A stretch of 63,973 nt of DNA, filler included, from Basidioascus undulatus (Eukaryota): the NCBI GenBank assembly GCA_000826855.1. It is 4 parts of 4 records of this genome, joined end to end, with 100 filler letters (N's around TTAATTAATTAA, not from the genome) between each part and the next. Parts side by side here need not be neighbours in the genome. Positions count along the whole stretch, not along the records: positions 32,591 to 48,736 come from JTLS01000603.1; 3 more parts are not named here. One strand, written 5' to 3'. Below are positions 12,102-61,526 of this stretch, piece after piece (positions within the stretch are counted from its first letter, which is position 1; each line of letters starts with the position of its first letter). A program made the position numbers and the translations under genes. Below the pieces are notes generated by a model. The model did no database searches. It worked only from the letters and a program-made list of their open reading frames with translations, and was not told the origin of the DNA.

Positions 12102-14553
12102 ATGTACGCCCGGGCGCTCCTCCGCTCGTCGGGCCTCCGCTCTGCCCGCGCACCAGAGGTCGCCAGGCCGCTGCGAAGGGTAAGCTCCCCAAAGCTCAGT
12201 GATCCATTCCGGATTCCTTTCTTTCGCGGGACTGATCTGGCTTTCTCTCGGAATATTACAGCGCCTGGCAACAGCGCCTCCCACACAACCGGCTGGCGCG
12301 ACGACTTCCTCCCATCCCGCTCCTCCCCCGCCCTCGACCAAGCCCCGTCGCCCCTTCCGTCGCTTCCTGCTGACGACCACCCTCCTCGCCGCGACCTTTT
12401 ACGGCGTGTCGACGTACGTATCTCTCAATAACGATGACTACGCCGAATTCTTCACCGCGACCTTTCCCGGCGCCGAGTCCCTCATCGAGCTCCTCGAGCG
12501 CACCGACCTCGCGTCTTCCGCGTACAAGCTCGACTCGATCGACTTTGGCTCACTGAGCGATATGGCCGCGCAGGCGGCCGCGGTGGGCAAAGACGCGTAC
12601 AAGCGCGTGGAGGAGGCCGTCAACCGCTCCATTGGCTCGGCTGAGGACAAGGCGCAGGCGGGCGGCAAGGAGGTTCAGGCCAAGACCGGCACTGTCGTCG
12701 AGTCCGCCAAGGAGAAGGCTGGTGAGCTCTCGGACAGCGTCAAGGAGCTCGTGCACAAGGCGGAGGCCGCCCTGCACCCCTCCTCTTCCGCGCCTCAGGG
12801 CAGCCCCGACACCGCGCCGCCTCGCACGCTCGAGGCGCCCGCAGAGACCTTTGGTACCCTCAAGCGCGAGGAGGCCACCATCCGCGAGCCTCTTCCCGCC
12901 GAGATCGAGTCCGCTGCCAATGCGGCTGCTGCGGCGCAGGATGCAGACAAGGCGGACGAGCCGCTCCCGTCGGCGGGCAAGACCAAGGAAGGCAAGAAGA
13001 TCTACAACGGCCCTCCCCTCCCCATCGGCTTCTCCCTCCCCCCGGGCTACGTCCTCCCTGAGCCCGCCCACACCGAAGTGTCCGCTGCGACCCCTCCAGT
13101 CCCCGCCGTCGCCGTTGCCGTCCCCGAGCCCGCGCCCGAGCACCCTGCGCCTGTGGCTGAGCCCGCGCCCCTCCCGCTCGTCGCACCCGCGGTCATCGAG
13201 CTCTCCGCATCCGAGCCCGTCATCGCCCAGCTGGCGGAGACGATCGACAACCTTGCGCAGTTCCTGCGCGAAACACCCGCGGCCGCCACGTCCGCGCGGG
13301 GCGTGATCGAGACTGCGCAGCTTGACCTCTCCGCGCTCGGCGACCGCCTGAACGCGATCAAGGAGGAGGAGAAGAAACGCCTCGAGGAGAGCTTGGATGC
13401 GCAGGCGCGCGAGTACTCCAAGATGCTCCTTGAGCACGAGCGCGACATCCAGTCCAAGGTAGACAAACAGGAGGCCGACTGGCGCTCTCAGTTCGATGAC
13501 GAACGTCGCAAGCTTGTGGATGCGTACAAGGACAAGCTCTCCGCGGAGCTCGAGACTCAGAGCGAGCTCATCAACCAGCGGTGAGTCGCGGAAGGCTGTT
13601 CAATCTTCCCAAGCCGGCTTTCTGATGCATCAGGATGGGATCGCAGTCTCAAGGAGCAGGTTGTCGCGCAGGGCGTCGAGATGCAGCGCCGCTGGCTGCG
13701 TGACATCAAGCTCAAGGTCGAGCAAGAGCGCGGGGGGCGTCTTGCGAAGCTCGAGTCGCTCGCGAACGATGTCAAGAATCTGGAGCAGATCACGTTCGAC
13801 AACGCGGCGTACCTGGACGAGAACTTGCGCGTGCACACCCTGTGGTCCGCGCTGCGCGCGCTCGAGCGCGCTGTCTCTGTCCCGCTCGCAGGCGCGGCCG
13901 TGAAGCGTCCGTTCCGGGACGAGCTGCGCGCCCTGCGGCGCGCGCTCGTCGATGGCAAGGACGACGATGTCATTGCGGCTGCGCTCGGGCAGCTCGAGGC
14001 GTCCGACGCCCCTGACACGGGTGTCGAGAGTCTCGGCGACCTCACCGCGTGGTTCAGCCAGAAGGTCGAGCCCAAGGTCAGGCAGGTCGCGCTCGTGCCC
14101 GAGGAGGACGCGGGCGTGCTCTCCTTCCTCGCATCCGCGGCCCTCTCGAACGTCCTCTTCCGCAAGAAGGGGCTCGTGCCCGGCGAGGATGTGCCGAGCG
14201 TCTTGGCGCGCGCGGAGTACTACTTGCAAGAGAAGGATCTGGACGCGGCGGCGAGGGAGCTGAACCAATTGACGGGTACGTCCTTCCTCTCCTCTTTCCG
14301 CTGTGTGCACTGGAGCGAATCAGGTGAATCACTTCTCGTGCCTAGGGTGGGCGAAGGTGCTGCTGTCGGACTGGCTGCGGGAAGCCCGCAAGACGCTGGA
14401 GGTGCAGCAGGCATTGGACGTACGTCTTCTTCCGTTTCTCAGCCGCGCCCGGCTTTCCTTCGCCCCTTCTTTGCCCCTACTCACGCACTAGTTTCCGGGT
14501 CCATGCAGATTGCCGAGACGGAGGCGACGCTGGCGTCTCTGCTCGTTATCTGA
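12102..14553 (+). CDS. MIC60: MICOS subunit Mic60 (mitofilin)
   Basis: Arg-rich presequence, TM segment FLLTTTLLAATFYGVSTYVSL, long coiled coil, MQRRWLRDIKLKVEQERGGRLAKL, and mitofilin domain [40 protein letters not shown]. Confidence 0.95.
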
Positions 14554-18418: not shown

Positions 18419-19908
18419 ATGTCGTCCATCCTTAAAACCAGTCTTACCCGCCTGGGACTCAGTGCGTCCGCTCGCCGTGGTAGTCTAGCAGGCTACAGGC
18501 GATCAGAGGCTGACGCTCTGCTCCCTATATTCTTGGTCTTCCCTCATGCAGTCCCAGCAACGTCCCTGACGGCCCTCTTCTTCTCGGTCGTGGGCCTCGC
18601 GGTCGTCCTTTCTCAGGCGTTCCGCCTCTTCCGCGTTGTTCTTGATCTTGCCGTTCGCCGCGGCACCTCGGTTCGTCTGCTCGAACCCTGCCCCGCCCAC
18701 GTCTCGGCGTACTTACCCTCCTGTGCTTGCACAGCTCAAGAAGTTCGGCGCCGGCAAGGGCGCTTGGGCTGTTATTACTGGCGCGTCTGATGGTATTGGG
18801 CGCGAGTTTGCGTTCCAGCTTGCCAAGGCTGGGTTCAACGTTCTGCTCGCTTCGCGCTCCGCGGAGAAGCTCGGGGTAGTCGCGGCTGAGATTGGTGCGT
18901 TTCCAAAATCCTTAACTTGGACTTTGCAGAGATGAAATCGTAGACTTACGTGCGAGATTTATTCGCGTGGGCTTGGGGAGACAGAGACGAAGTACGGCGT
19001 CCTCACGCGCACGCAGGCGATCGATTTCGCCGCGGGCGAGCCGAAGGCGTACGAGGCCTTCAAGAAGACCATCGACGAGCTCGATGTCGGTGTTCTGGGT
19101 GCGTCTCTTCTCGTGACTTTCTCTTAGCCACGCAAGTGACTGACGGATAGTCGGGCGGCAGTCAACAACGTCGGTCGCTCGCACTCCATGCCCGTGCCGT
19201 TCGAGGAGACGCCTCTGGAAGAGCTGGACAACATCATCGAGATCAACATCAACGCGACCCTGCGCGTGACTCAGATTGTACTTCCCAAGCTTATCGCGAA
19301 GTGCGTTCTTTCCCCATCGTTTCACCCTCACTGAGTCCTTTGACACCTTTCTGCCGCCAACAGCAAGAAGGGCCTGATCCTCAACATCGGCTCCTTCGCG
19401 GGCTACATTCCCTCGCCGTTCCTCGCGACCTACTCCGGCTCCAAGGCGTTCCTCGTTACCTGGACCCAGGCGCTCGCGGAGGAAGTCCGCGAGAAGGGCG
19501 TCACCGTCGAGCTTGTCAACACCTACTTTGTGGTGCGTGTCATGTCCCCTTTCTTCCGCTCCCTTCCGACGCTCCTTTCATCTCCCTTGCCGGCTTTCCG
19601 CTTGCTCACTCGAGTTCGAACCCGCCTCGCAGGTCTCCGCCCTTTCCAAGATCCGTCGTCCGACGTCGCTCATCCCCCTCCCCTCGCCTTTCGTCCGTGC
19701 CGTCCTGCGCCGGATCAACCTCCGTGGCGGAGCGGTCGGCCGGCCGTACACGAGCACGCCGTACTGGAGCCACGCGCTTCTGGACTGGCTGATCGGCGTG
19801 CTCAACCAGCCGGCGGCGCTGATCCGGTACAACGCCGGGATGCAGAAGGACATTCGGAGGAGGGCGCTCAGGAAGGCGGAGAGGGAGAAGGGCGGCAAGA
19901 CCGAGTGA
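18419..19908 (+). CDS. IFA38: Very-long-chain 3-oxoacyl-CoA reductase (17-beta-HSD12-like SDR)
   Basis: [64 protein letters not shown], catalytic YSGSK and C-terminal [13 protein letters not shown]. Confidence 0.93.
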
Positions 19909-20460
19909 AGGGGTGGGGCGCAGGTGGTCGAACACTGACAATCGGGGTCGTTCGCTGCGTGCGGGGCAAGGGGAGACGCACTCTAGGACTGAATTATGTG
20001 CTCTTTCGTGGGAACGAGGACATTACATACCCGTTCGAGCTTGATGTCTGCCTTCAACTTGACAACCGGAGCCAGCGACACATAAGCTCGCGGTTCTGAG
20101 GCAACACAATGCAACACGATTAGCAATCGGCCGATGCTGTGTGTGCAAGGTACAGGTGCAGTTGAAGGGAGGCTGCGTTCCAGCCTTGACACAAGCCCTT
20201 GCAATCCCCACCCCATTTCGGAGCGTAGCTGCTTTCTATTCTACACTTGAACATGGCCTGAAGGGCTCTTGAGAGTCGTCGTTACGGCATCAGCCCTTCC
20301 CTCATGCCGGGCTCGTGCCTGACCGCCAATGCTGAAGTAACTCAACATTTCATTCCAGCTTCCTTCGGACTCACTCGCGCCTTGACGTACCCTGTGCGTG
20401 CGGAAGTGGTGTGCACACGATAACCGGTGAGCACCATAGCAAAGAGAAGGGCGAAGAAAG

Positions 20461-27401: not shown

Positions 27402-30400
27402 TCACTCGATGATCTCGAACCTGCCGCGCTTCCCCTCGGGCCCATCTTCGCCTGCGCCTCCCGGCCCGCCGTCCCAGCTGCGCTTGGTCGCGTTCGGGAT
27501 GGGCGAGTTGCTCGTGGTGGATGACGGGGAGCCGTCCATGGCGCCCGAGGCGAGGATGCCGTGCAGCATGCTCATGTAGTGGTCGTCCGAGAAGCCCATC
27601 CCCGCGAGCGGGTTCACAGTCTCCTCATCGCCCGGGTTCGAGCCGCCCGCACCCGCGCCGCCGCCCTCGGCGGAGGGCAGCGAGAGCGCGCCATGCGTGA
27701 GCGCTTCGGAGAGGGCCTGGTCCGAGAGCGGTGGAAGGCCGAGCGCGCGCGGGATCTCCGAGAGCTGCTGCATCGTCTTGAGGTGGATCAGGTGTTTCTG
27801 AAACACGCACATGAGATGTCAATATCAGTAGGGCTCGGAGGGAGCGAACAGAACCATGCACCTCAAGCATGCCGAGCAGACCCTCCTTCGTGAACGGCTT
27901 CGGCAAAATGTCGTTCATGCCTGCATTCCGCCCACTCGTCAAGCCTGCGATCGGTGTTGGGCGTGCACCGGAGACACGCACCGTGCGAGAAGTAGTTGAG
28001 GATCTCGTTCGGGTTCGAGTTGGACGTCATAGAGATGATGGGGGTCATAGGATCGAACTGGCGGATCAAGCTCGTCGCGGACACGCCGTCCAAGTTGGGC
28101 ATAACGATGTCCTAATCCCCACCGCGCATCCCTCCATCTCAGCACCCACCGCACCAGCATACGCAGCGAAGCCAACACACGCACCATGAGCACCAGGTCG
28201 TACTTCTCCAAGTTCATCTTGTTCACGGCGCTGACGCCGTCGACGGCGACGTCGATCGTGCACCCGAAGACTTGCAAGAACTTCGAGCTGAGCTTGCGGC
28301 ACACCGCGTCGTCCTCGACGAGGAGCACGCGTGGGGGGACCGCCCAGCCGGGGACGAACGTGCTCCTGCGGACGCGGAGCGTCTGCTGGCCGGGCGAGGG
28401 CGGCTGGCCGGCGGGGGCGGGCACTGCGCTGGCGGGGATGGCGGAGGTGGACGCCGTTGACCCGGGCGCCAGCTCATCGGGCGCGTACGCATAGCTACTG
28501 CTGTTCGTCGCGCCGCTGTCGTCGTCCGTCCGCGGCCGGAGGTGGCCGACCGTGAACACGCGCAGTCCGTTCCCGTTCGGGACGTCTCCCCCGCCGAACC
28601 CGCCTACCGCAGCGCTCTGGTCGTGCGGCGGGTGCATGAAGAACGGCGCAGGCGGCGGCTTGGACTGCTGCTGCGCGCCGTTGGCGGGCGAGGGGGAGTC
28701 GCCCGCCGTGCCCGGGCGAGCGAGCGGGTCCGCACCCGCACTGCGGTCGACCGAGCTCACCGTCGTGCCGGTCGACGCAGGGCTCTCGCCCGTCGCGCGC
28801 TCTTTGCCCTTCGAGCCCGTCGGTGGGGCGGTGCCAGGGATGCTCGACGTCGAGGCGGCCGAGGTCGTCGCGCCCCCGCCGCCGAGCTGCCACGATGGGT
28901 CGAACAGCTGCTGCTGCTCCGGCGTCGGACCGAACCCGTCGATGCTCGCTGCCCGGCGCGAGATCTCGTTCATCTGCGCGAAGCTCGCGCGCGCGACCTC
29001 GGTGTAGGACGCGATGAGCTTCTGCGCTTGGTCGGAGGGGACGAACGGCGTCTCGCCCGTTTGCGCGGTGTCCTTGTCGTGCGATTTGGAGTCTGTCCAC
29101 ATGGGCCGGCCATGAACGATAAGCGCCAGGGAATGAGGAGATATCAGTGAAACGCGGATGGAAAGACTGACCGGCCTCGAGGTTGACCAGGTACTGGATC
29201 AAGCTCTGCATCAACTGGTCCTGCGCAACGAGGTTCTTCTGGAAGTTGAGCATCTCGCCGATGACGCCCTGGTAGTTGCGCTGGAGCCCTCCGATGTGCG
29301 TATACATCTCCTGCTGCATCCGCGCAAGCGAGTCGAGCTGCGACCGCAACCCTGCGACGTCGTGCCCCGACGCGGGCGGGCCGCCGTCCGCGGGGCCCGG
29401 CGTGCCTTGCGCCGTAGGCTTCTTGCCTGTTGGTGCTTTTCGCTGGAGATGAAATGTGGGGCGTGAGAGTTGGGTGGGAAGGCGGCACGGAGAAAGTGGG
29501 AAGGAAGACGCACTCGGATGTTCTCGAGCAGGTGTCGTTGGTTCGCCTTGAACTCGGGATGTTTGAACTCCCACGTCTGGTCGCCCCACGGCCGCTCCTC
29601 GCCCTCCTCGCGCTTGACCTGTCCCGGGACAAGGGAAGTCCCTCCCATCAGCACGCGCTCCAACTTTACACCTAGCATCCGCTAATCTGTGATCTTACCT
29701 TGTGGAAGTCGTACTTGTTCAGTTGCCGTACGAACGACGCAAAGTTCGAGTGCTTGAAGTGTCGAGGAAGAATGTGCCGCGTGAAATCGTTCATCTCCTA
29801 AATGATGGAGGGAGGTCAGCGCGCTGGCAATGGTACGAAAGTAAACCGGCGAAGACGTGCCTTGACCACGAACGAGTCCCCTGATGGTGTCCAGCCGACG
29901 ATGTGCGCGTACGACGTGTCCTCCAGCATCCTAATCCCGCCGGCAATGTTGAGCACCACCTCATCCAGCGTCGCCCAACCATTCGCGACTCACATGTACA
30001 GCTTCTTCACAAAGTCGCTCGGCCCTCCAGTGGGCGGGCCTCCCCCACCCGCGCTCCCACCCGCGCCTTCCCGCCCCATGCCATCACCTTGCGGTGGCAG
30101 CTGCTGATGGGATGGCGGCTGAGGCGGCGGGGGAGCGTTGGGGTCATACCCGCCCAGTGCGCCGCCGGTGTACAGCTGCGCCGACTCGGCCTTGACCTTG
30201 CGGCGCTGGGCGGCGGCGGCCACCGCCGCTGCTTGTTGCTGCTGATGCTGCGCCTGCGCGTGTTGTTGCTGCTGCTGTTGTTGGACGGAGGGGTGGTGCG
30301 GGACGTGAGGGGGGAGCGCGGGATGCTGCCACGTTGTGCGGCCGGTTGCGGATTCTGGTAGAGGAAGCAGGGGCAAAGGGGGCGTCAGTTTCGAAACGCG

Positions 30401-33825: not shown

Positions 33826-34550
33826 GGAATGGGGTCAGTGAGCCCGTTTCAAGAGGTCAGTGAGGTGGGAATGGAAGAGTGAGCGCTGAGGGAGGGACTA
33901 GATGAGCGTAGTTGCGGGGCAAGCGAGGCTTGCTTGAGGAAGCGACGCATGCAGAACCCTGCGCTGGTGATAAGAGCCGAGGTTCGCTTGGTTGCGGCAA
34001 CGTTGGTCCTGTCCAGTCATGTGGGCTTGTAAGGTGATCCGGGCGCGGTGAAGTTTCTCGGGAAGGTGAAGGGAGTGCCTTGCCGCGGACCCACTACAGA
34101 ACAGAACCCACTACAGAACAGAACGAGACTTCATACTGCAGTCAAAGGTAAACGTATGACCGCATTGTATGCGGCCACGCAAATGCAACATTACAAGTAG
34201 TACAGGCGAAGTGAAGAGAGAACAGTCCGTAAAGTACCGACAAAGACGCTGCACCGGAAACCCAAGAGACAAAGAAACGCAACCCAACGCCCAAACCGAC
34301 CCGTCGTCCACGCACACCATCACCGCACCAGCTCCTTCCTGACGTCGAGTCCTCGCTCCACACACATCAACGTACCCAAACCAACGGAACCACACGAGCC
34401 GCATCAACAGAGACCAGCGCGCTCAACACCCGGAGGCGGAGCAGCAGCGGTCCCAGGTCGAGCGGGCAAGATGGTGGACGTCGAGTGGGAGGCGTAGAGG
34501 GTAGAGGGCGAGAGGCGAAGACGGGAGAGAAGGGTAGGGATGGCACGGGG

Positions 34551-35650
34551 TCATGCGCAGATGGCGGGGAGGTCGGAGAGGAAGGCTGAGAGGTCGTAGT
34601 CGTCTTGGGAAGGGAATTCGGTGCTGGTGAATGCGCCGACGTCGAGCGGGCTGTTCAGAAGGGAGAGCGAGGCGGCGGGCGAGGCGGCGCCGAACGGGTC
34701 GTCGTCTTCCGCCGTTGTCGTTGACGCGGCGTAGGACAGGTGCGCGGGCGTAAAGAGATGCGCAGCCGGCGGGTCGAAGACGACGTCGTCTTGCGCGGGG
34801 GAGAGGGACGGAGATGCAAGGGAAGGAGAAGGGTCTTGGGGTGCGGCGGTGTTGAACAGCGCAGATAGGTCGGACGGCAAGACGAGCGCGGAGGCGGCGT
34901 CGTTGACGGCCGGCGAGTCGGACAGGCGAGCAGCCGCTGCAGGGCCCCGCTCCTCGTGAGAGGACGGGACGCCCTCGCTGCAGGAGGGCGAATGCTCGTG
35001 TCGCTTTCGTCGACGGTCGCGGACAGCGCCGGGGGCGTCATCGTGGATGGGGAAGGGACCTCGGAAGTGGTGGCTGTGCTGCTGTTCAGGCCGGAAGACG
35101 CTGTCTTCTTGAGCATCTCCATGAGCGCGCCGAGCCCGTCCTCGAGGCTCTTGACTCGTTCGCGGAGCTCCCGGTTCTCGCGCTCAAGGACTGCCACGCG
35201 CGGGGACTCGGCGGACGAAGTGGACGGAGATGTGGACGCGGTAGGCGTGCTGGAAAGCAGGGCGGTGTTTTCGGCCTCGAGGTGGGCCACGCGGGCTTCG
35301 AGCTCGGAGAGGTAAGCTTTCCTGTTGATGGCAAAGAGCTAGGTCAGTACTAGAATGCCCCAATGGAACCGCCAAAGAACGAGAAAGAGAACGCACTTCT
35401 TGTCGCGCGAGATCTGTGCCGCCTGGCGGTTGCGCTGCATCCTCGCGGCCTTGCGCTGCTCGGACGTGATGGGAGCGTCGCGCGGGGGCGGGGACAAGCG
35501 GTCGCTAGCGCCGCTATCGGAGGGGGTCGCGGGCGCCTTGCGCTTCTTGGAGAAAGAGGGAGCCGGAGAGGGAATGGAATAGGAGGACATGGTGGGTGCG
35601 GGCGAGGTCGACATGGAGAGGATGTTGGGATTGACGAATGCGGTAGTCAT
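34551..35650 (-). CDS. HAC1: bZIP unfolded-protein-response transcription factor (Hac1/Hxl1/Cib1/XBP1 type)
   Basis: bZIP EQRKAARMQRNRQAAQISRDKK|KAYLSELEARVAHLEAEN, one spliceosomal intron in the basic region, plus a 41-nt Ire1-type intron. The spliced form ends at 34551 and the unspliced form at 34655. Confidence 0.88.
34940..34980 (-). other. Unconventional (Ire1-cleaved) 41-nt intron
   Basis: Both ends lie in 7-nt CTG|CAGC loops on stems (CGCCCTC/GAGGGCG and GGCC/GGCT). There is no GT-AG, and removal joins the two reading frames. Confidence 0.88.
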
Positions 35651-35822
35651 GGCGGGTCGTGAACGGAGTGAGAATTAAAGGATGGAAAGAAAAACGGTAA
35701 GGAAAGACGTGGAGATGAGGGGATGAGGGATGTAGACGTGGAAGGTGGCGGTAGGATGGCAACTAGAGCGGTCTCGCATGGATTCGACACACAGTGCCGG
35801 CGGCTGCACAGCACGCAACGTG

Positions 35823-35858
35823 GAAGTTTCGTGGAAGTTTCGCGAAACTTTCGCGAAC
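35823..35858. promoter_or_regulatory. Heat-shock element (nGAAnnTTCnnGAAn) upstream of the HAC1-like gene
   Basis: GAAgtTTCgcGAA at 35834-35846, with additional GAAgtTTC and TTCgcGAA pairs on either side. Confidence 0.6.
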
Positions 35859-36349
35859 ACATTTTTTTTTGTGTTGTAATGTCAAAAATTCCATCTCGTC
35901 CGATGGTGAAGGTGCAGCATCCTGTGCACATGTTTTTACAGTATTCGTTCCCTATCCTAATTCGAAATTATCAAAGACACGTGGCGAAAAGTGCCTTTGA
36001 TTCAAGGCAGTCCGAGCGCCACTCCCATGCCGTCAGTCTTCGTCTGACCAGTATGGAGATCCGTTGGTCATATCATGAGTAGCAAATACATACAAAATGA
36101 GTGTCCAAGGATAGGAAGTGAGGGGGCGCAGTGCCTCAATGAAGCCACTCGAGTCGCACAGCCGCTCGAAGACTCTCCGCACCCGAACAAGGCAGCGTTC
36201 TACGCGAGGACAAGGTTCCAGTTCCAGACTTCTCGTTGGTTCATGAGATCAATCGAGACAAAGAGAAAGTATGTGAGAGGATTCCCTTTGAAATGCGTTG
36301 AAGGGCCATTCTCGGCCTTCCGTCAGCACTGAGGGATGGGTAAGCTGTT

Positions 36350-44894: not shown

Positions 44895-47700
44895 CTAATA
44901 AAGCAGATCCGCGTCCCCGTTCGTCCTGCTCGCCGTCGCAGGTGCCGGGGCAGGGGCGTCGGCGGTGTACCCGCCCGCGAAGACTTCTCCGAGCTGGGCA
45001 TAGACGTTGTCGCCCGCCCCCGCGCTGTCCTGCAGCAGCTGCAGCTGCTGTGGCGCGTCTTGCGGCTGGGTGAGATCGGGCACCGGCTGCGGCTGCTGCG
45101 AGGGCGGTAGCGCGACGGCCGCGGGGACGGGCTGCGTAGGGAGAGGCGGCGGCGCCGAGGAGCGCGAGACGGCGAAAGCGACTGCGCGGCGCGTGGAGGG
45201 GTCGAGTGCGGGCGAGTCGGGAAGGAAGCGGGGCTTGGTGCCGCGGACTGACCAGTTAAAGTGCGTTAGTCCAAGGGTGGCAGACGTGCGCTGCCGATGG
45301 GTCAGGATGGACGCACTGAAAGTCGACGGCTGCTTGTGGTATATAGACGAGAGGGTACCGGCTGTTGCGCCATACGCAGCACCACCGTGTCAGCCAAGCC
45401 CTCGCCACACGCTGCGACACCGCGCCACGCACTGTTGAGCAAGAGCGAGTCCAGCAGAGAGCGGTCCATCCTGTCCGTCTCGGTCGATATTGGCGGCTTC
45501 TCGGCGAGGACGATGTCGCGCGCGGCGCCGGGGTCGGTCGAGAGCAGGCGCCAGTAGATGAACCCGCGGTCGCGCAGGTCCGGGTTGTCGACTTCCTCCG
45601 TCGCCCACTTGAGCACCTTGGGCACGAGCTCCTGCCCCGCCGACGGGCGCTTGATGAACAGCTTGACCGTTGCCGTCAGGAGCGCGAGTTGGACCTGTGC
45701 GTCGGTCACAAAGGCAGAAGCTTTCGGGTGAGTGCTTGTTTCTGAGACACAAGGCAGGAAGCGAAAACGGCGCACCTCGACCGGCTCCTCCAAGAACGAG
45801 AACAAGAAGTCCTCGAGGAGCTCGTCCGAGTTCTCGATGCGATCCGCGTACTGGCCGATGATCCAGATCATGGCCGCCTTCGCCTCGGGCTCGTCCAGAC
45901 TGTCGAGGTTCTCGCAGAGCGTGCCGATGATGGACTCGTACGTGTTCGGGTACCGCCGGAAGATGTCCTTGATAACGACGATCGCCTCCTGCACGACGTA
46001 GTTGACCTTGGTCTGGATGAGCGTGAGCAGTGCCGCGATGCACTTGTCCGCCGCGGAGGCGATCTTGATCGCCAGACGCCCGATCGAGCGTACGGCCTTG
46101 CGGACAAAGTCGACGTCCACCTCCGAGGCGTATCTGAAGTCAAAGTCTCACGCCGTCAGCTTGGAGGCTGCGAGGGAAGGGAGGGAGGAGCGAGAAAACG
46201 GACTCGGTCAGCTCGGCCAGGACCTGCTCGACGTTGTCCTCCTTCGCGAGGCGGTACATGATCTCGAGCTTGGCGAGCTTGACGTAGATCAGGTCGCTGT
46301 ACTTGATAAAGAAGATCTTGACCTCGTTCTGGAGGACGATGGGCCGTCGCTGGATGATGAGCAGGATGTTGCGGAGCGCGACGTATTGGACCTCGGGGCC
46401 GGAGGAGAGGAGGGTGACTGCTCGAAGCAGCGCTGTCAGATCAAACGCCTAGGTCTAGACCAAACGGTGGTGGTTCTTCTGGACACACCGAGAGGAGGGG
46501 AGAGCTTGCGGCAAAAGCCATCGATCACGTCCTGATCAGATATGTAGTTCATGAGGTAGAGCATGATCTTGCACGTCGTGAGCACGACGGCCGAGTTGGC
46601 GTGCTGTAGCCGGATCGCTATCCGGTCCGCGAGGATCTCGGCGTCTGTCGATTCTTGCGGGACGAAGTGAAGCAGCGAGTCGAGGATGTAGATTTGGCCC
46701 CATCTGAGAGAATTGACCGGAGTTGGCGAAGCGGAGAAGATGGAACAAAGGGAGGAGCACGCACTCTGAGCACTCGCTCACGGCGCTGACAAGCTTGCTC
46801 GCGATCGTGAGGTTGAGCTTGAGAGAGATGTTGTCGCTGCGCTCGGCGATCTCGGTGAGGGCCGCGACGGCGTTGGCGACGACGCTGGCGTTGGCGTCGG
46901 CGAGGAGGTCGCGGAGCATGCCGATGAAGCCCTCGCGGTCGACGACGCGCCGGTCGTGCATCCACAGCTTGGCGACGCAGATCGCGGCCGTCTTGCGCAC
47001 ATACGGGTCCTGGTCGCGCAGGCTGTGCCGCAGCGGGTCGAGGATCGAGGAGGTAATGATGGGGAGGGGGATGTATGACATCGTGCGGATCGCCAGCGCA
47101 CGCAGGAGCGGATTCCGGTCGGCGCAGTCCTGCGGGGGAGGGATGGAGAGGGGATGAGGGTGCGTGTGGGAGGGCAGCGGGAGGATAGGCTGGGACGCAC
47201 GGAAAGGAAGGAGGGGATGGCGTGTTGGATGAGGTCAGAGCGGGCACGGCCGTAGTTGATGAGGTAGAGATAGACCACTGGCTCCATTTCCCCGTAAGTG
47301 GCATCCTCAGCTACCACTCAAAAGAAAGACGCACTCTTCTTGATCTCAATATCAGGAATGCCCATGCACTGCAGCACGTCCGGGAACAGCGGCGACACTG
47401 CGCTCTCCCGCACGCATATCAGCCTTACCTCTCCCTTCCTCCAGCCCCACCCCTGATATGTAGAGCCAACGCACTGTCAGACCCCATAGTCATGTTAGCC
47501 ACGATCTTCTTGAGGACGGTCTTGCGGCGGGCGAAGCCCTTGTCCTTCCGGTCGGCCTGCTGGAGCTCGGCCCGGAGCCTGCACGCTCATCTCCCCCGTG
47601 TCAGCGCGCGAGTCCGGCGCTGGGCGCGGGGAGGGACAAAACCGCACTCTTGGATCTTTCCGCGCTGGAAGAAGCGCGCATCTTGGCCTGCGGTGGACAT
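44895..47700 (-). CDS. APL1: AP-2 adaptor complex beta subunit (beta-adaptin)
   Basis: [17 protein letters not shown]...[51 protein letters not shown] and [17 protein letters not shown]. The N-terminus matches the fungal AP-2 beta type as recalled. Confidence 0.92.
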
Positions 47701-51734: not shown

Positions 51735-54700
51735 TTACATCAAACAACCCTTCTTCCCCAAGCTCAGCTTGATCTTCGGCGCGCCGCTCGCAGATGCAGC
51801 CGGGCTCGGAGCGCCAAACTCGGCCCCGCCTGTGTACGGCGGGCTGGTCGCGAGCGGACTTGGAGTAGGCGGGTTCCCGAAGGCTCGTGGCGCGGCGACA
51901 GGCGGCGGCGCGGCGTAGAAGTTGCCCGTGAGACCGCTGTCGAGGCCTGAGCCGAGGGGAGGCAGCGCGCTGCCCGACGCGGCGGGGGACGGAGCTGAGG
52001 ATCCGCCGGCGGGTGAAGCGGCGCCACCGCCGTTGAACTGCGCCCAGAGCGGACACTTGCGGTTGGTCTCTGCAAGGCCGGCATGGATTCAGCACCTAAT
52101 ATCAGAGCGACGCAGAAGACAGAAGTACTCATGTGCCCGAGCTGCCCGCAGTGGCCGCACTTGCGCTGCAGAAGAGAATGACATCAGCAACTCATCGACA
52201 GAAGACAGGCCCCGCGGCGCACATACAGTCGTATCGGGTTTGGCTGGGCGGTTCATCTTGATCGGCACGCCACCGCTCTGCGCCAGCTTGGCGTTCTTGC
52301 GCTGCAAGCGACGCTCCTGGTTGCGCTTGAGCTTCATGATCTCCTCCTCGAGACTACGAGCAAGTGAGTACCGTCAGTAGTTGTTCGCGATCGCGGAAGA
52401 GTAACCGACAAGAGGAATGTACAGCTTCTTGCGACGCTTGTCCTTGTCCGCATCGCCAGTGGGCAGAATCGCGTCCGCCGCCAGGCTCTGCTCCTCAATG
52501 ATTTGGCGCTTGCGAACGTAGGCGTTGATGACGGCCGGGTCGCGGACGATCTCAGTCTCCCACACGCCCTTGACCTGTACAACATGTCCGCGCGTGAGCA
52601 ACACGACTCAATTTCCTAACGCGGAGACCGGCACGCACCAGCCGCCTGATCTTCAGCACCTTCGACGAGCCTCCATACCTGTCGCCGCGGCTGCCGACGC
52701 TCATAGCGTCGTCGCGGTCCGGCGTCGAGTCGCGGCTCATGACGGACTCCGAGCGGCGGTACGACGCGGGCGTGCCGACCGAGCCGGCGTGCGGAAAGCG
52801 GCCGTGGCCGGCCTGGGCGCGCCTGGGCGGCTCCTCCTCCTCGTGGTCGCTGAGCTCGGGCGGGACAGGGTTCGAGAGCGAGTCGTACTGCGCCTTCCAG
52901 ATGCGGGCGATCTCGGCCTTGTACACCTTCTGCTGCTCCGCGACGTTGTAGCGATGCGCGTGCTTGGGACGAGCCTCGATCTCGGCTGCGAACAGTAGGT
53001 GTTAACACGTCGGTCGAGAGGCGCAAGTAGGCCGCTGAAGGACGTACCCTTGACCTTCTCGGGATCCTCACCAGCTCGCAAGAAGATGTCCTTCATCGAA
53101 ACGCGGATGAAGCTGAATGCCTCGCCGCGGCCCGATGGGTCGCCCTCGCCATGGAGCTTGAGCATTGCCTTGCTCTGCGTCGCGTTGACGAAGTTCTTGG
53201 TCGTGATCCACGGCGCGAGCTGCTGCTCGATCGAGAGCTTCGTCTCGTCTCCGCCGGTCGGGTCCGCGTCATCGCCGCCGTCGCCGGCCGAGTCGCCGTA
53301 GCCCGCGTCTAACAGGTGGCGCTGGCCCACCTGCATCGCCTCGCAGAGCGCGACGGACTCGGGCGTGACGAGCTTGAGGATCTCCTCCGAATCGGGGACC
53401 TTCGTCGTCGCCTTCAGGCGCCAGAAGCCCTGGTGCTCGCCCTTGCGGTGGTACTCCATGAACTCCTGTGCGCATCGTCGAATCTAATCAGTACCGATTT
53501 CGCATGCGTCCGCTGAGTGGCGGTGGCGCACCTTCAGGCGCTGACGCATCTGGAGCTCGTTCTGGTCCGGGAAGTATTTGATGAGGCGGTGGATCTTGAG
53601 CCGTTCGCCCTTGGTCTTCTTAAGCAGCTTGAACGCGATAGACTGCAGCCGGTACTTGAGTGTGTTGGTGATGACACGCGAGTGCGGACCGGGCACGGCA
53701 GTGACCGGGTACGTCTGGCCGACGGTGAAGAGGTTCTTGATCTCGCGGATGTAGTACTTGGTCTCGGTCTTGGTGGTCGACCTGCGAGGCGCAACCGTCA
53801 GTATACGAGCGGCTGAAAGGGAGTAGTTTCATCACTTACCGGATGACGAGGAAGTCGGTGGGATTCGGCTTGTGCCGGAACAGAGGCGCGCGGATGAGGT
53901 TGTTGTACAGCGTGGGTATGGTCTGGCCGGGCTGGACGAAGCCAAGTTTCATAAAGGGCGACTCGTCCGCGACGTCGAGCACGAACGGCTCCCCGATGTC
54001 CGCCTATGCGAAGGGTTGTCAGCTCTGCCCTCGCGCCCACAAAGAAGGGGTCGCAGCATACCTTCGGAACGTGGTCGTCGTTCGGGTCCTTCTTGCGATA
54101 GTAGTTGACGAGCACGCTGCCCATGCCGAAGTTGGAGATGATCGGCGGGTACTCCTCCTATTGCCCCATCATCGAACGGCTTCAGCATGGTTGCGCTTAG
54201 GGAACAAGCAGCAACGCAGCACGCACCGAAAACTCCCACAGCACGAACGGCCCTCCGTCCTTCAAGCTCAAGTCCTTCGTTGTGCGCACGCCTTCGACGC
54301 CGCCGTCGATGCGCGCCGCCCTGCGCTTCTCTTTGTCCTTCTTGCGCTTGCCCGAGCGGACCTTGGTGAAGCGGAGCTCGACGTTGCTCGGGAACGTGAG
54401 CGCCGCGCGGTGGAACGAGCGCGCTTCGTTCTTGCTGAGGCGGGTCTTGTACTGTGGGTCGAGGCGAACACCAATGAGAACGCAGGACAAACGCAAAGAC
54501 CTAGAGACAGGGTGGGAAGACTCACGAAGGGCAGCTGGAGCTTGAGCGCGGGGTACGCATGCTGGACGTCGATCTGGCCGAACGTCTGCCGGATGCGGTG
54601 GCGCGGGCCGGCGGCGGACATCTCGTAGTGGTGGTCGTTGGAGAGGTTGAACGGGTCCTTGTCCTTCTCTTTCTCCTTCTCTGTCGCGCGCGACCGCTTC

Positions 54701-57500: not shown

Positions 57501-59082
57501 TTTGAGGAAAGGAATATGTCAAGATAACAATATTGTCAAGAGCTGAGTTGTGGAAGGGAAGACCTACCCGCTATGCAACAACGCATGGATCCTCGCTCGT
57601 ACTCTGCCTTCGCAGCAGGTCCTAAGAACCCAGTACGCAAGAGCTGCTGCAGCTTCCATACTGTCATGCCGCCCTACTGAACCAATTTGTCAGCTAACCG
57701 ACCGCAGTACGAAGGTCATCAAGGACGCGAAGACGGACGACCGAGTGACCGAGAAAGTGGAGCGGGCGCTTCGCCGACCACTGCGGGTAGAGCGGATGCG
57801 CGATGGTCCACCCGTATCGGTCTTGTCCCGCCGAAGCAGCGTGCTCAGCGCCGTAGCGACCTGGCCGCTGAGAAGCTGGTAGTACAGCTCCACGGCGCGG
57901 TCGTGCAAGCTCGTGACATGCCTCCCCCCTGCGTCACGGCAACGAAGCAAGGCGGATTCTGTCGAAAGAGAGCACTTTCCTTTAGCATTATAAGAGAAGG
58001 TATAAAGTATGACGCACTCTGCGAAAAGCACCCGCCGTTTCTTTTCGGATGGGCCGAGCCCGCGTTGAGCTCGTCCTGAAAACGCCCCGAAAGGCGGGAG
58101 GTGTTGGCCGAGAGGAAGCCCGCGACGATAACTAGAGGTGAAGGGTTGTCCTCGTGTTCGGCCTGATGAGGGTGAAAGCTCGAAGGCCAGATTCGAAACC
58201 GAAGAGAAGAGTGAGAAGCGAGTAGAAGAGAGCAGGAAGGAGGACGGAGGGGTGCAGGAGCGTCATAAGCGTGAGCTCGATCGATTCGTTATTTGTATAG
58301 GTGGGTATGTGAAGGAGAGGAAGAAGGTCGACTTGCATCCCAAGGTATAGAATGCTCCAGACAGAGCAGTGGTGGACGAGCTGTTGATGGAAGAAGGCAA
58401 GGTGCATCAGGCACCGACTCCAGCTCGTCAAGGCGGCCTGACAGGCACCAGAAAACGTCATCGCCGTGCTGCCTATTCTCAAACATTTCTTTTTCGCAAG
58501 AACCAGCTAATAGGTATTTTGCAACTCTGCACTTCATAAATTACTCTATTGAACCAAGAGGAGTGTCACAGTCAACGAATCAGTCGGAACGTCTTCGCCT
58601 ATTTTGCGTTGGGCCATCATCGGTTTCTTCCATGTAAGTAACGACAACAGCTGCTCATGTCTTGGGGCAACTTTGCTTCTCCCGAGAGCCGTTACAGGCC
58701 ACTGTTGTCTGTAGGTGCCGATGTAACAAGGTAACAACCTGGTGGAATGGTTGTTTTTGTACTCAGCCTGTCATACGTTCTGCAGTCCATGGCACACCCA
58801 TCACACTCAGCACCATGTTTGGTATGTCAGGGCAACGCATCGACATGGACGGCATTGCACACAAGAGCACGGTAGGGAGGGATGCACTACTAAAAATACA
58901 ACGTTCGGTGGGCGTGCGGGACATGGGCGTCGGAGACAAGTAGCGTAGAGTGGCACAGTCGTAATAACGGATTTGGGCGTGTATAAGTGTATATTGTAGG
59001 GTATTGGAAATCCGAAACTAAGGGTAAGGAGGAGGCTTCCGAGCAAGGCAACCTGAGAAACGAAACGAAAGGGAACCAGCAA

Positions 59083-61526
59083 TCAAGCTGCGAGGGCAGC
59101 GTCCGCATGAAGCGAGACGGCCGTCTCGTGCTTGCGCCTCCGCATCTCGGCGGCGCGCTTGATGCCGAACGAATCGGTAAAGACCTCGTGGACTTCCTCG
59201 AGCGAAAGGCCACCGAGGTCGGGGAAGCTGGAGAGGGATGGCGCAGAAAATGAGCCGGTGTAAGAAGAAAGGGAAGGGAGAATGGGTAGCGCACCAGAAA
59301 AGCACGAAGATCCACCCGAGCAGACATAGGCCCGCGTAGAAGCCGAACGCGCCAGCGGGGGTGATCTTGCGCATGAGGGAAAGGTAGGTGAGAGAGATAA
59401 GAAGCTGCATGGATCGGTCCGGGAGTTAGTGGACCTGCACGTCTGCACACGAGCGGCCATGAGAGCCTTACGTTGCCGCCCCAGTTGCAGCCGGTCGCTA
59501 AACTCGTGCCAATGCCACGGACATCGAGAGCCTGTGTTCGAGCGTACGAGTCAGTCAGTACGGTCAGCTGCTCGACCAACCAAAGACGCCGAGGAAGACG
59601 CACGAAAAGCTCGCCCTGCTGCCACGGGACTAAGATAGAAATCGATGTCAGAATTGAATTAAACACCTTCAGTTGCAAAAAGCACGTACTGTTTCCAAGA
59701 CCAACAGCGTATGACAGAACGTAGAGGACGATGGCGAGAAGGACGAGGCTGGACCACACCTTCGGGTAGTCCGAGTTCTCGAGCAGGTCGCCGCCCGTCT
59801 TGCGCGTCAAGAAGTGGAAGCAGATGGCGGCGAAGGTAAGAGAGAAGACGAGCCCGGGCGCAGAGAAGAGCATCACACGGCGACGACCGATAATGTCAAT
59901 GTACTCTGTAGGCCGTACCGCCGAGGTCAGCAATGCGCAAGGAGATCCGCCTATTGAATGAGGGGTACGGACTGAAAGCGAACAGAGTACCAACAAAGTT
60001 GGTCCCGGCGACAATAAGACCGACCGCGGTGGGCTGATCGAAGCCGATAGTGGCGAAAAGCGTGGCTGATGGGCAGCGGGGAGGTCAATGGGACCCCGAG
60101 CGGCGTAATTGTGGGAGAAGAATTTGTTGCTCACCAGAGTAGTACATAAGGGTGTTGAAGCCACAGAGCTGCTGGAAGGCCTGGAGACCGCAAGCGACAA
60201 TGGTGGCGCGACGCTTGACTGTATTGCGAGCCGCCCATCAGTGTCTGCGACCTTGGCTAGGAACCCGACCGCGCTGCTCACCAGGGTTGGTGAACATGCT
60301 GAAGAAGCGCTGGGCGAACGTCGTGCCCTTGACGACCTCGACGCTCTCCTTGACGCTCGCCTGAAGCAGGTCGACCTTGAGCTTGATCTCGTCGGCGGAC
60401 GCGTACGGGTACACCTTGGCGAGGACTTTGCGCGCATCCTCGACACGCTCCTTGCGGAGGTAGTACCGCGGCGTGTCCGGCATGAAGTGCATTGCAATGA
60501 GCTGAATGCCCGACGGCACAGCGCAGATGCCGACCATCCAGCGCCAGCCGTTGTTGACGTGCGCAAAGCCCGCGCCGATGCCGTCTGTGAAGGTGCGGGG
60601 AAGGAGAAGGGTGAGGATTGAGGAACAGATCGCGAGGGGGAGGTAGGGGCTGTGAACTGACAGGCAACAACTTGGCCAAGCGTGATGAAAATCACGTTGA
60701 CGGTGACGAGACGGCCGCGAAGACCTGTTGTACCAAGCGCCAGTGGGAGGTGAGTTGGCGAAGGATGAGTGAAGGCGTGGAAGACGCACGCGTCGGCGAG
60801 AGCTCCCCAAGATACAACGGGGCGATACAGGCCGCCCAGCCCACACCAAAACCCAGAATGAACCGCCCTGCCACCATGGTCGCCACCTGCAAACGCCAGA
60901 AGGAGCTCAGCGAGGCTCCCCTTTGAGGGATCAGCAGCACGTCGACAACTCACATTGTGCGCACAGGCCTGGACGATGGCGCCAACAGTAAAGAAGACAT
61001 CGGCGGCCGCGAGAACCGTTTTGCGGCCGATCATATCAGCGACGATACCAGCGCACAGGGCCGAGATCAGCGCGCCTGGGCAGAGCGGAAAGGAAGGTAG
61101 GTTCAGCTCGATATCACTCAACAAAACAACGGTCCTCATGCGCACCAAGTGTTGTTGCAGAAGTGATGAGCTCGCGCTCCCGATCCCCCAGAATACTTCC
61201 CAACGCATCGCCAATCTCCACCAGCGTTCCTGAAATGATGCCCGTATCGATACCGAAAAGGAATCCTGATACAGCAGCCGCGGTCTGCGAGGGTGGGACA
61301 TCTCGTTCAGCTACACGCCCGCGTGCAGGAAGGCAACATGGGAAGGAAGACGCACGACGAGGAAGACGACGAACGCGGTAACGCGCTCCTCCCCTTCAAG
61401 AGCGATGGCGGCGTCGTCCGCCTTGGCTATCGGACGGCGGGGCTTGGTGGAAGCGTGCTCATACTCTTCTGCGAACCCCTCCTTGCCCTTGTCGGACGAA
61501 GGAGTCGAGAGGGACAGAGTGGACAT
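59083..61526 (-). CDS. ITR1: Myo-inositol transporter (MFS sugar porter)
   Basis: [74 protein letters not shown] and [21 protein letters not shown]. Confidence 0.92.

Follow-up and report, generated by a model that had tools for sequence, protein, structure and literature searches.

A candidate 41-nucleotide Ire1-type intron in a HAC1/XBP1-like bZIP gene of Basidioascus undulatus

A minus-strand gene of Basidioascus undulatus (assembly GCA_000826855.1) is very probably a HAC1/XBP1-type regulator of a basidiomycete-like fungus, with positions 34980-34940 as its unconventional intron. Positions count along the window, that is, the whole stretch of DNA analysed (63,973 nucleotides, filler included). 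In the proposed model, the mRNA would fold into two short hairpins, which an internal hairpin and an outer stem would keep side by side. Once activated, Ire1 would cut the seven-nucleotide loop CUG|CAGC of each hairpin after the G, and a tRNA-ligase-type enzyme would join the exons. The loss of 41 nucleotides (2 modulo 3) would exchange a basic, Pro/Arg-rich tail for an acidic one serving as an activation domain. By analogy with HAC1, XBP1 and Hxl1, we infer the Ire1 cleavage, the ligation, the control by ER stress and the activating role of the tail. An Ire1-type intron had been proposed in a sequence-only reading of this DNA, and the layout of the element, the junctions of its relatives, the match of a covariance model and the GC content by codon position all argue in its favor.

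The host gene is laid out as follows:

34551..35650, minus strand: bZIP gene, HAC1/XBP1-like, from the start codon (ATG at 35650) to the stop of the spliced frame
35397..35650, minus strand: exon 1, N-terminal part and basic region, aligning with the basic region of the relative P0001
35322..35396, minus strand: GT-AG intron of 75 nt (GTGCGT ... CAG) between basic region and zipper, read by eye
34981..35321, minus strand: exon 2, leucine zipper and linker, ending at the predicted 5' cleavage site; placed by bZIP_1 and by homology to Agaricomycete XBP1-like proteins
34551..34939, minus strand: exon 3 as read after splicing, coding for an acidic tail of 129 aa that begins with the split Ala codon; its stop codon is at 34553-34551
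34655..34657, minus strand: stop codon TGA of the unspliced frame, after a basic tail of 108 aa counted from the 5' site

That the gene belongs to the bZIP family is demonstrated. The Pfam model bZIP_1 scores 28.4 bits on the exon 2 piece (cut-off 27.6), while bZIP_1/bZIP_2 give 13.8 bits, below the cut-off, on the exon 1 piece alone. Joining the two across 35396-35322 restores a continuous bZIP: exon 2 opens at 35321 with the rest of the basic region and continues into the leucine zipper, and the hairpin element lies about 110 codons past the start of the zipper. The products are 327 aa long when spliced and 306 aa when unspliced. A word index returns a single protein match for the zipper piece, a bZIP protein of Artomyces pyxidatus (E 1.6e-4), which is the nearest protein. 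When this protein and the two exon pieces are used in a profile search, 466 relatives are recovered. Among the matches listed (120 of 466), all the named ones come from mushroom-forming fungi, and UniRef gives many the name X-box-binding protein 1; in blastp, exon 2 matches these 120 with E-values down to 1e-13. These sequence comparisons support the assignment of the host gene to the fungal HAC1/XBP1 family of bZIP factors, as had been suggested from the DNA alone. In all six Agaricomycete genomic loci checked, the basic region is uninterrupted at the place where the window has the GT-AG intron.

The neighbouring ORF pieces of the window belong to ordinary eukaryotic genes. Those at 12184-14550 (plus), 45305-47234 (minus), 52740-53483 (minus), 58893-61310 (minus), 19344-20096 (plus) and 27942-29198 (minus) correspond respectively to mitofilin/Mic60, an adaptin N-terminal region, a TAF1-like DUF3591, a sugar transporter, a short-chain dehydrogenase and a weak response-regulator receiver match. 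No kinase/RNase is found among the 18 large ORFs of the window. Upstream of the gene, an alternating TTC/GAA array at 35818-35858 (minus strand) resembles the heat-shock element consensus, with a perfect unit at 35834-35846 that lies 184-196 nt before the ATG of the bZIP gene. The array holds the window's only TTCNNGAANNTTC, which is within chance (0.55 expected, and at least one in 39 of 100 shuffles).

The hairpin element straddles the end of exon 2 and the beginning of exon 3:

34993..34998, minus strand: outer exon-exon stem, 5' arm CGAGCA (read directly, and from the fold)
34970..34990, minus strand: 5' splice-site hairpin, 7-bp stem 34990-34984 / 34976-34970, loop CUGCAGC at 34983-34977
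Between 34981 and 34980, minus strand: predicted 5' cut, after the G of CUG in the loop
34946..34968, minus strand: intron-internal hairpin, 9 bp with one bulge, loop UCAC (from the fold)
34933..34945, minus strand: 3' splice-site hairpin, 3-bp stem GCC 34945-34943 / GGC 34935-34933, loop CUGCAGC at 34942-34936
Between 34940 and 34939, minus strand: predicted 3' cut, after the G of CUG in the loop
34927..34932, minus strand: outer exon-exon stem, 3' arm UGCUCG, 6 bp with the 5' arm (read directly, and from the fold)
34940..34980, minus strand: candidate Ire1-excised intron, 41 nt (from sequence, fold, rarity and covariance model)

This anatomy is demonstrated: the twin identical seven-nucleotide loops, the internal hairpin and the basal CGAGCA/UGCUCG stem that had been described are all read directly on the minus strand. 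The upper end previously given to the element, 34998, stands, but its lower end is 34927, three bases past the 34930 first proposed. Ire1 substrates carry two stem-loops with seven-nucleotide loops of the form CNG|CNGN, cleaved after the G, and both CUGCAGC loops fit this rule, on stems of 7 and 3 bp. Cuts after CUG in the two loops would remove 34980-34940, which are the 41 nt originally announced. The structure as drawn has a free energy of -38.5 kcal/mol and is the optimum when both loops are held unpaired. The unconstrained optimum, at -40.4 kcal/mol, pairs the two palindromic CUGCAG stretches together instead. Compared with shuffles, the z-score of the fold is only -2.2, and 5 of 200 shuffles fold equally well.

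Such a z-score leaves some room for a first alternative, namely that these are chance hairpins in a GC-rich bZIP gene, that the mRNA is never cut and that only the 306-aa protein with the basic tail is made. We hold this to be very unlikely. The heptamer CTGCAGC is indeed common, with 32 matches on both strands against 16.8 expected. As a seven-nucleotide loop closed by three or more base pairs, however, it has two copies in the 64-kb window, both in this element, and an exact twin within 15-120 nt occurs once in the window and in none of 100 dinucleotide shuffles. Under looser loop rules (CNGCNGN or CNGNNGN), the twins observed are at chance level when set against shuffles (2 vs 2.75; 19 vs 25.6; 6 vs 3.5). 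A loose loop consensus alone thus proves nothing, and since loose twins are no commoner than in shuffled sequence, it is the strict motif and its context that carry weight.

The element also occurs in relatives. Scanning metagenome contigs with the zipper alignment yields 38 loci, with a best-segment identity of 33-64 %. Most of the zipper is spanned in 35 of them, at 33-46 %; the relatives are distant, with 35-46 % identity in the zipper. They share a conserved CCACC[UAGCACG]GGUGG hairpin (loop in brackets), followed after 35-50 nt by CC[CUGCAGC]GG, which is conserved as well, and when UAG| is joined to |CAG, the reading frame obtained encodes conserved acidic-tail motifs. The element is present in 34 of the 38 loci, 31 with the strict pattern and 3 as variants, and its length is always 2 modulo 3:

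Strict pattern, 35 nt: 1 locus of 38
Strict pattern, 38 nt: 4 loci of 38
Strict pattern, 44 nt: 8 loci of 38
Strict pattern, 50 nt: 18 loci of 38
Sequence variants keeping the element (one of 47 nt): 3 loci of 38
Contigs without exactly the element (L001, L014): 2 loci of 38
Unrelated: 2 loci of 38

The last two related contigs, L001 and L014, read an uninterrupted ...HLA|AG... in one frame; no poly-A tails, which bear on an RNA or DNA origin of these two, are found on the short contigs. The exact junction also occurs in four of the 120 public proteins listed (P0034, P0055, P0068 and P0075). The excised form of this clade-wide element therefore exists in public contigs and annotations, and the homology of the window's element with it is demonstrated. 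In the relatives the element interrupts an Ala codon in phase 1 and is followed by GCG G. The window is identical in this respect (split codon G|CA, then GCG G), and its 41 nt fall within the 35-50 nt of the relatives. Across 26 non-identical relatives, the outer stem, 5' hairpin, internal helix and 3' hairpin are 95.8 % paired, against 28-47 % in slid-partner controls. Five pairs have both sides changed, and a covarying helix stands at the place of the window's internal hairpin.

Alignment with related sequences had been suggested as a check on the loops and the second frame. The layout, the codon phase, the frame shift and the 3' loop are kept in the relatives, but their 5' loop is U(A/C)GCA(C/A)G and not CUGCAGC. 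This loop (L002-L036, for example L004:2388-2484) breaks CNG|CNGN at two positions, and despite this its junction appears in L001, L014 and the four annotated proteins. A scan of the 38 loci for a simple twin-hairpin consensus finds none, because the 5' loop of the relatives does not fit the consensus applied.

A covariance model (R1) derived from these 26 relatives only was searched against the entire window, with its filters disabled. Its top match is at 34915-35002 (minus strand), with 29.0 bits and an E-value of about 4e-6 under a rough calibration; the next match in the window has 11.6 bits (E 0.31). In the R1 alignment both loops, the internal helix and the outer stem are all in register, and the 5' stem of the window differs from the R1 consensus by two double changes that keep the pairing (A-U to C-G and C-G to U-A). 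The element is thus conserved at the same place in the relatives, of which 34 of 38 hold it and two exist without exactly it. That R1 picks this spot alone, and that codon phase and frame shift match those of relatives with intron-less contigs, weighs against chance hairpins. A covariance-model search with Hac1/Xbp1 intron models had been suggested beforehand. Rfam RF04247 (Hac1/Xbp1 intron) has its only match in the window here, with both loops aligned and the internal hairpin taken as 21 inserted nt, but the 24.5 bits obtained stay under the gathering score of 41 bits; the E-value is 0.083 when 1.4 kb is searched and 3.8 over the whole window. This gathering score is an operational cut-off. 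The same model, at E up to 10, also finds nothing in the related loci on which it was tried (20 of the 38, a subset of L001-L025), though these hold the element of the clade.

Removal of the 41 nt shifts the frame and gives the protein a new C-terminal tail. The switch from a basic to an acidic tail is confirmed by translation before and after excision: the unspliced tail has no D+E, 26 K+R and a pI of 12.0, and the spliced tail 17 D+E, 1 K+R and a pI of 4.05. Evidence that the second frame is a coding one comes from the GC content at codon positions 1/2/3. In exons 1-2 it is 0.556/0.596/0.818, and in the post-splice frame of exon 3 it is 0.672/0.562/0.797. Third-position GC in exon 3 is therefore 0.797 in the post-splice frame versus 0.672 and 0.562 in the other two, and the unspliced frame has its GC peak at codon position 2. 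Codon-position GC thus shows that the downstream coding frame is the one reached after 41-nt removal, a demonstrated signature which again speaks against chance hairpins.

The length of the reading frames carries no such information. Exon 3 (34554-34939) is largely or wholly free of stops in each of its three minus-strand frames, the two alternatives staying open for 94 and for 128 of the 128 codons. The 94 open codons of the unspliced frame are matched in 56-72 % of synonymous randomizations. ORF length is consequently no evidence, a point in favor of chance hairpins, as is the lack of homologues of the tail. The idea that selection maintains the length of this unspliced tail was rejected, the frame being as open as chance predicts in GC-rich sequence. 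For the acidic tail, a word index gives no homologue among 906 candidates, and HMMER against 1.84 billion representatives gives one match only (2944 aa, 9 stretches), taken as low complexity. The best blastp hit against the 120 listed relatives has an E-value of 0.61, at both C-termini. When a profile of 30 relatives' acidic tails is compared with the 1368 six-frame ORFs of the window, the spliced-tail ORF is not among the matches listed, and a profile of 72 relatives' basic tails does not find the unspliced tail among the window ORFs. By eye, the C-terminal FPS...D.LS resembles the DFPSALDLEL motif of the relatives; this likeness is only a lead, because all tail homology searches failed.

A second alternative is that a short spliceosomal GT-AG intron nearby joins the two frames, independently of Ire1. 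Between 35059 and 34937 there are 11 GT...AG pairs of 20-110 nt and 2 modulo 3, for example 34965-34937 (29 nt) and 35024-34978 (47 nt), and 37 of the 42 acidic-tail models among the 120 listed relatives use something other than the exact junction. We nevertheless consider this extremely unlikely: the donors available (GTCCCT, GTCCGC, GTCGAC and GTCCTC) are unlike the real donor of the gene, GTGCGT, the shortest candidates fall below the usual size of fungal introns, and the intron-less contigs of relatives show the hairpin-loop junction. As for the public models, 75 of the 120 listed carry a basic tail (...PPRRR-type, out of frame), 42 an acidic one and 3 are unclear, and 31 of the acidic-tail models run into the intron and shift frame elsewhere. 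The forecast that gene predictors would model such a gene incorrectly fits these relatives, with 75 of the 120 listed ending out of frame and 4 having the exact junction. The remaining alternative, a decayed relic of an Ire1 intron no longer used or a paralogue other than the UPR regulator, would gain from the distance of the relatives, but it is exceedingly improbable for a gene in which both loops have the perfect consensus, the four helices and both ORFs are intact and the third-position GC signature of the second frame is kept.

With an Ire1-type intron as the preferred reading, a further idea can be put forward tentatively, and we think it rather doubtful. The window element and its Agaricomycete relatives might form a subclass of Ire1 introns with three hairpins and 35-50 nt, missed by RNA-family models. 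The relatives violate the C(-3)/G(+3) rule in their 5' loop and nevertheless seem to undergo excision, while the window is canonical at both sites; Ire1 might thus be less strict, or have another specificity, in some of the Agaricomycotina. The palindromic loops of the window can also pair with each other, and the minimum free energy fold in which they do so, 1.9 kcal/mol more stable than the substrate fold, could perhaps hide the cut sites until the RNA is remodelled. In the literature covered on Agaricomycete and basidiomycete HAC1 introns and on 41-nt unconventional introns, no 35-50-nt three-hairpin type is described; Hooks and Griffiths-Jones 2011, outside this scope, may cover basidiomycetes. 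That work is reportedly the survey behind the Rfam Hac1/Xbp1 family, and the three-hairpin type is not claimed here as unpublished.

The mechanism itself is already known from HAC1 and XBP1, and the intron of the window, very probably a real one, is an unexceptional case of it; nothing in the current understanding is overturned, because this mechanism is textbook knowledge. The practical interest lies elsewhere. A correct gene model becomes available for a likely UPR master regulator, with a 327-aa form, presumed active, against an unspliced form of 306 aa, and the 41-nt size shift would offer a ready assay and marker of ER stress. For mushroom-forming fungi, most of the public models listed for this family end in the out-of-frame tail, and the version of the intron found in this clade escapes the curated RNA family model.

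Among known systems, the introns of metazoan XBP1 (26 nt) and of Ustilago maydis cib1 (65 nt) lie on either side of the candidate in size. Metazoan XBP1, as represented by RF04247, shares the twin seven-nucleotide loops and the outer stems, and the loops of the window align to the CUGCAGC loops of the model; unlike it, the window has an internal hairpin, which adds 21 nt between the other two. In Saccharomyces cerevisiae HAC1, passages of the Hxl1 report describe loops cut by Ire1, a C-terminal tail that is replaced and a 252-nt intron that pairs with the 5' UTR and blocks translation (PMC3154848). Among the 20 inverted repeats of 34500-36000, none shows such complementarity to the intron upstream of the ATG. 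Passages of the Pycnoporus genome paper report no clear Hac1 orthologue (PMC4101180), and Coprinopsis and Laccaria homologues are listed as uncharacterized in parts of the Hxl1 report (PMC3154848). U. maydis cib1 is described as a basidiomycete HAC1 homologue with an unconventional intron (PMC4836707, PMC5024300). In this it resembles the window gene, a likeness of description and not of sequence.

Cryptococcus neoformans HXL1 is likewise compared by description and not by direct sequence comparison. According to parts of the report on it, this basidiomycete bZIP gene has a 56-nt Ire1-dependent unconventional intron with stem-loops at its borders, and Hxl1 is very divergent in sequence (PMC3154848). 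The same source gives it a conventional intron near the bZIP domain and the unconventional one downstream, as in the window, and both introns exceed the 19-29 nt of most fungi and mammals; it differs by its 56 nt, against 41 nt here, and by its CAG borders (PMC3154848). The XBP1/HAC1-like genes of Agaricomycetes (proteins P0001-P0121, loci L002-L036) depart from the window by their 5' loop, by tail motifs that are undetectable in the window, by a zipper identity of only 35-46 % and by a basic region free of the GT-AG intron. They nonetheless share with it the bZIP family, an element placed after the linker downstream of the zipper, the outer stem, the 5' and internal hairpins and a 3' hairpin with the loop CUGCAGC, together with the phase-1 split of an Ala codon, a length of 2 modulo 3, and the pair of basic unspliced and acidic spliced tails.
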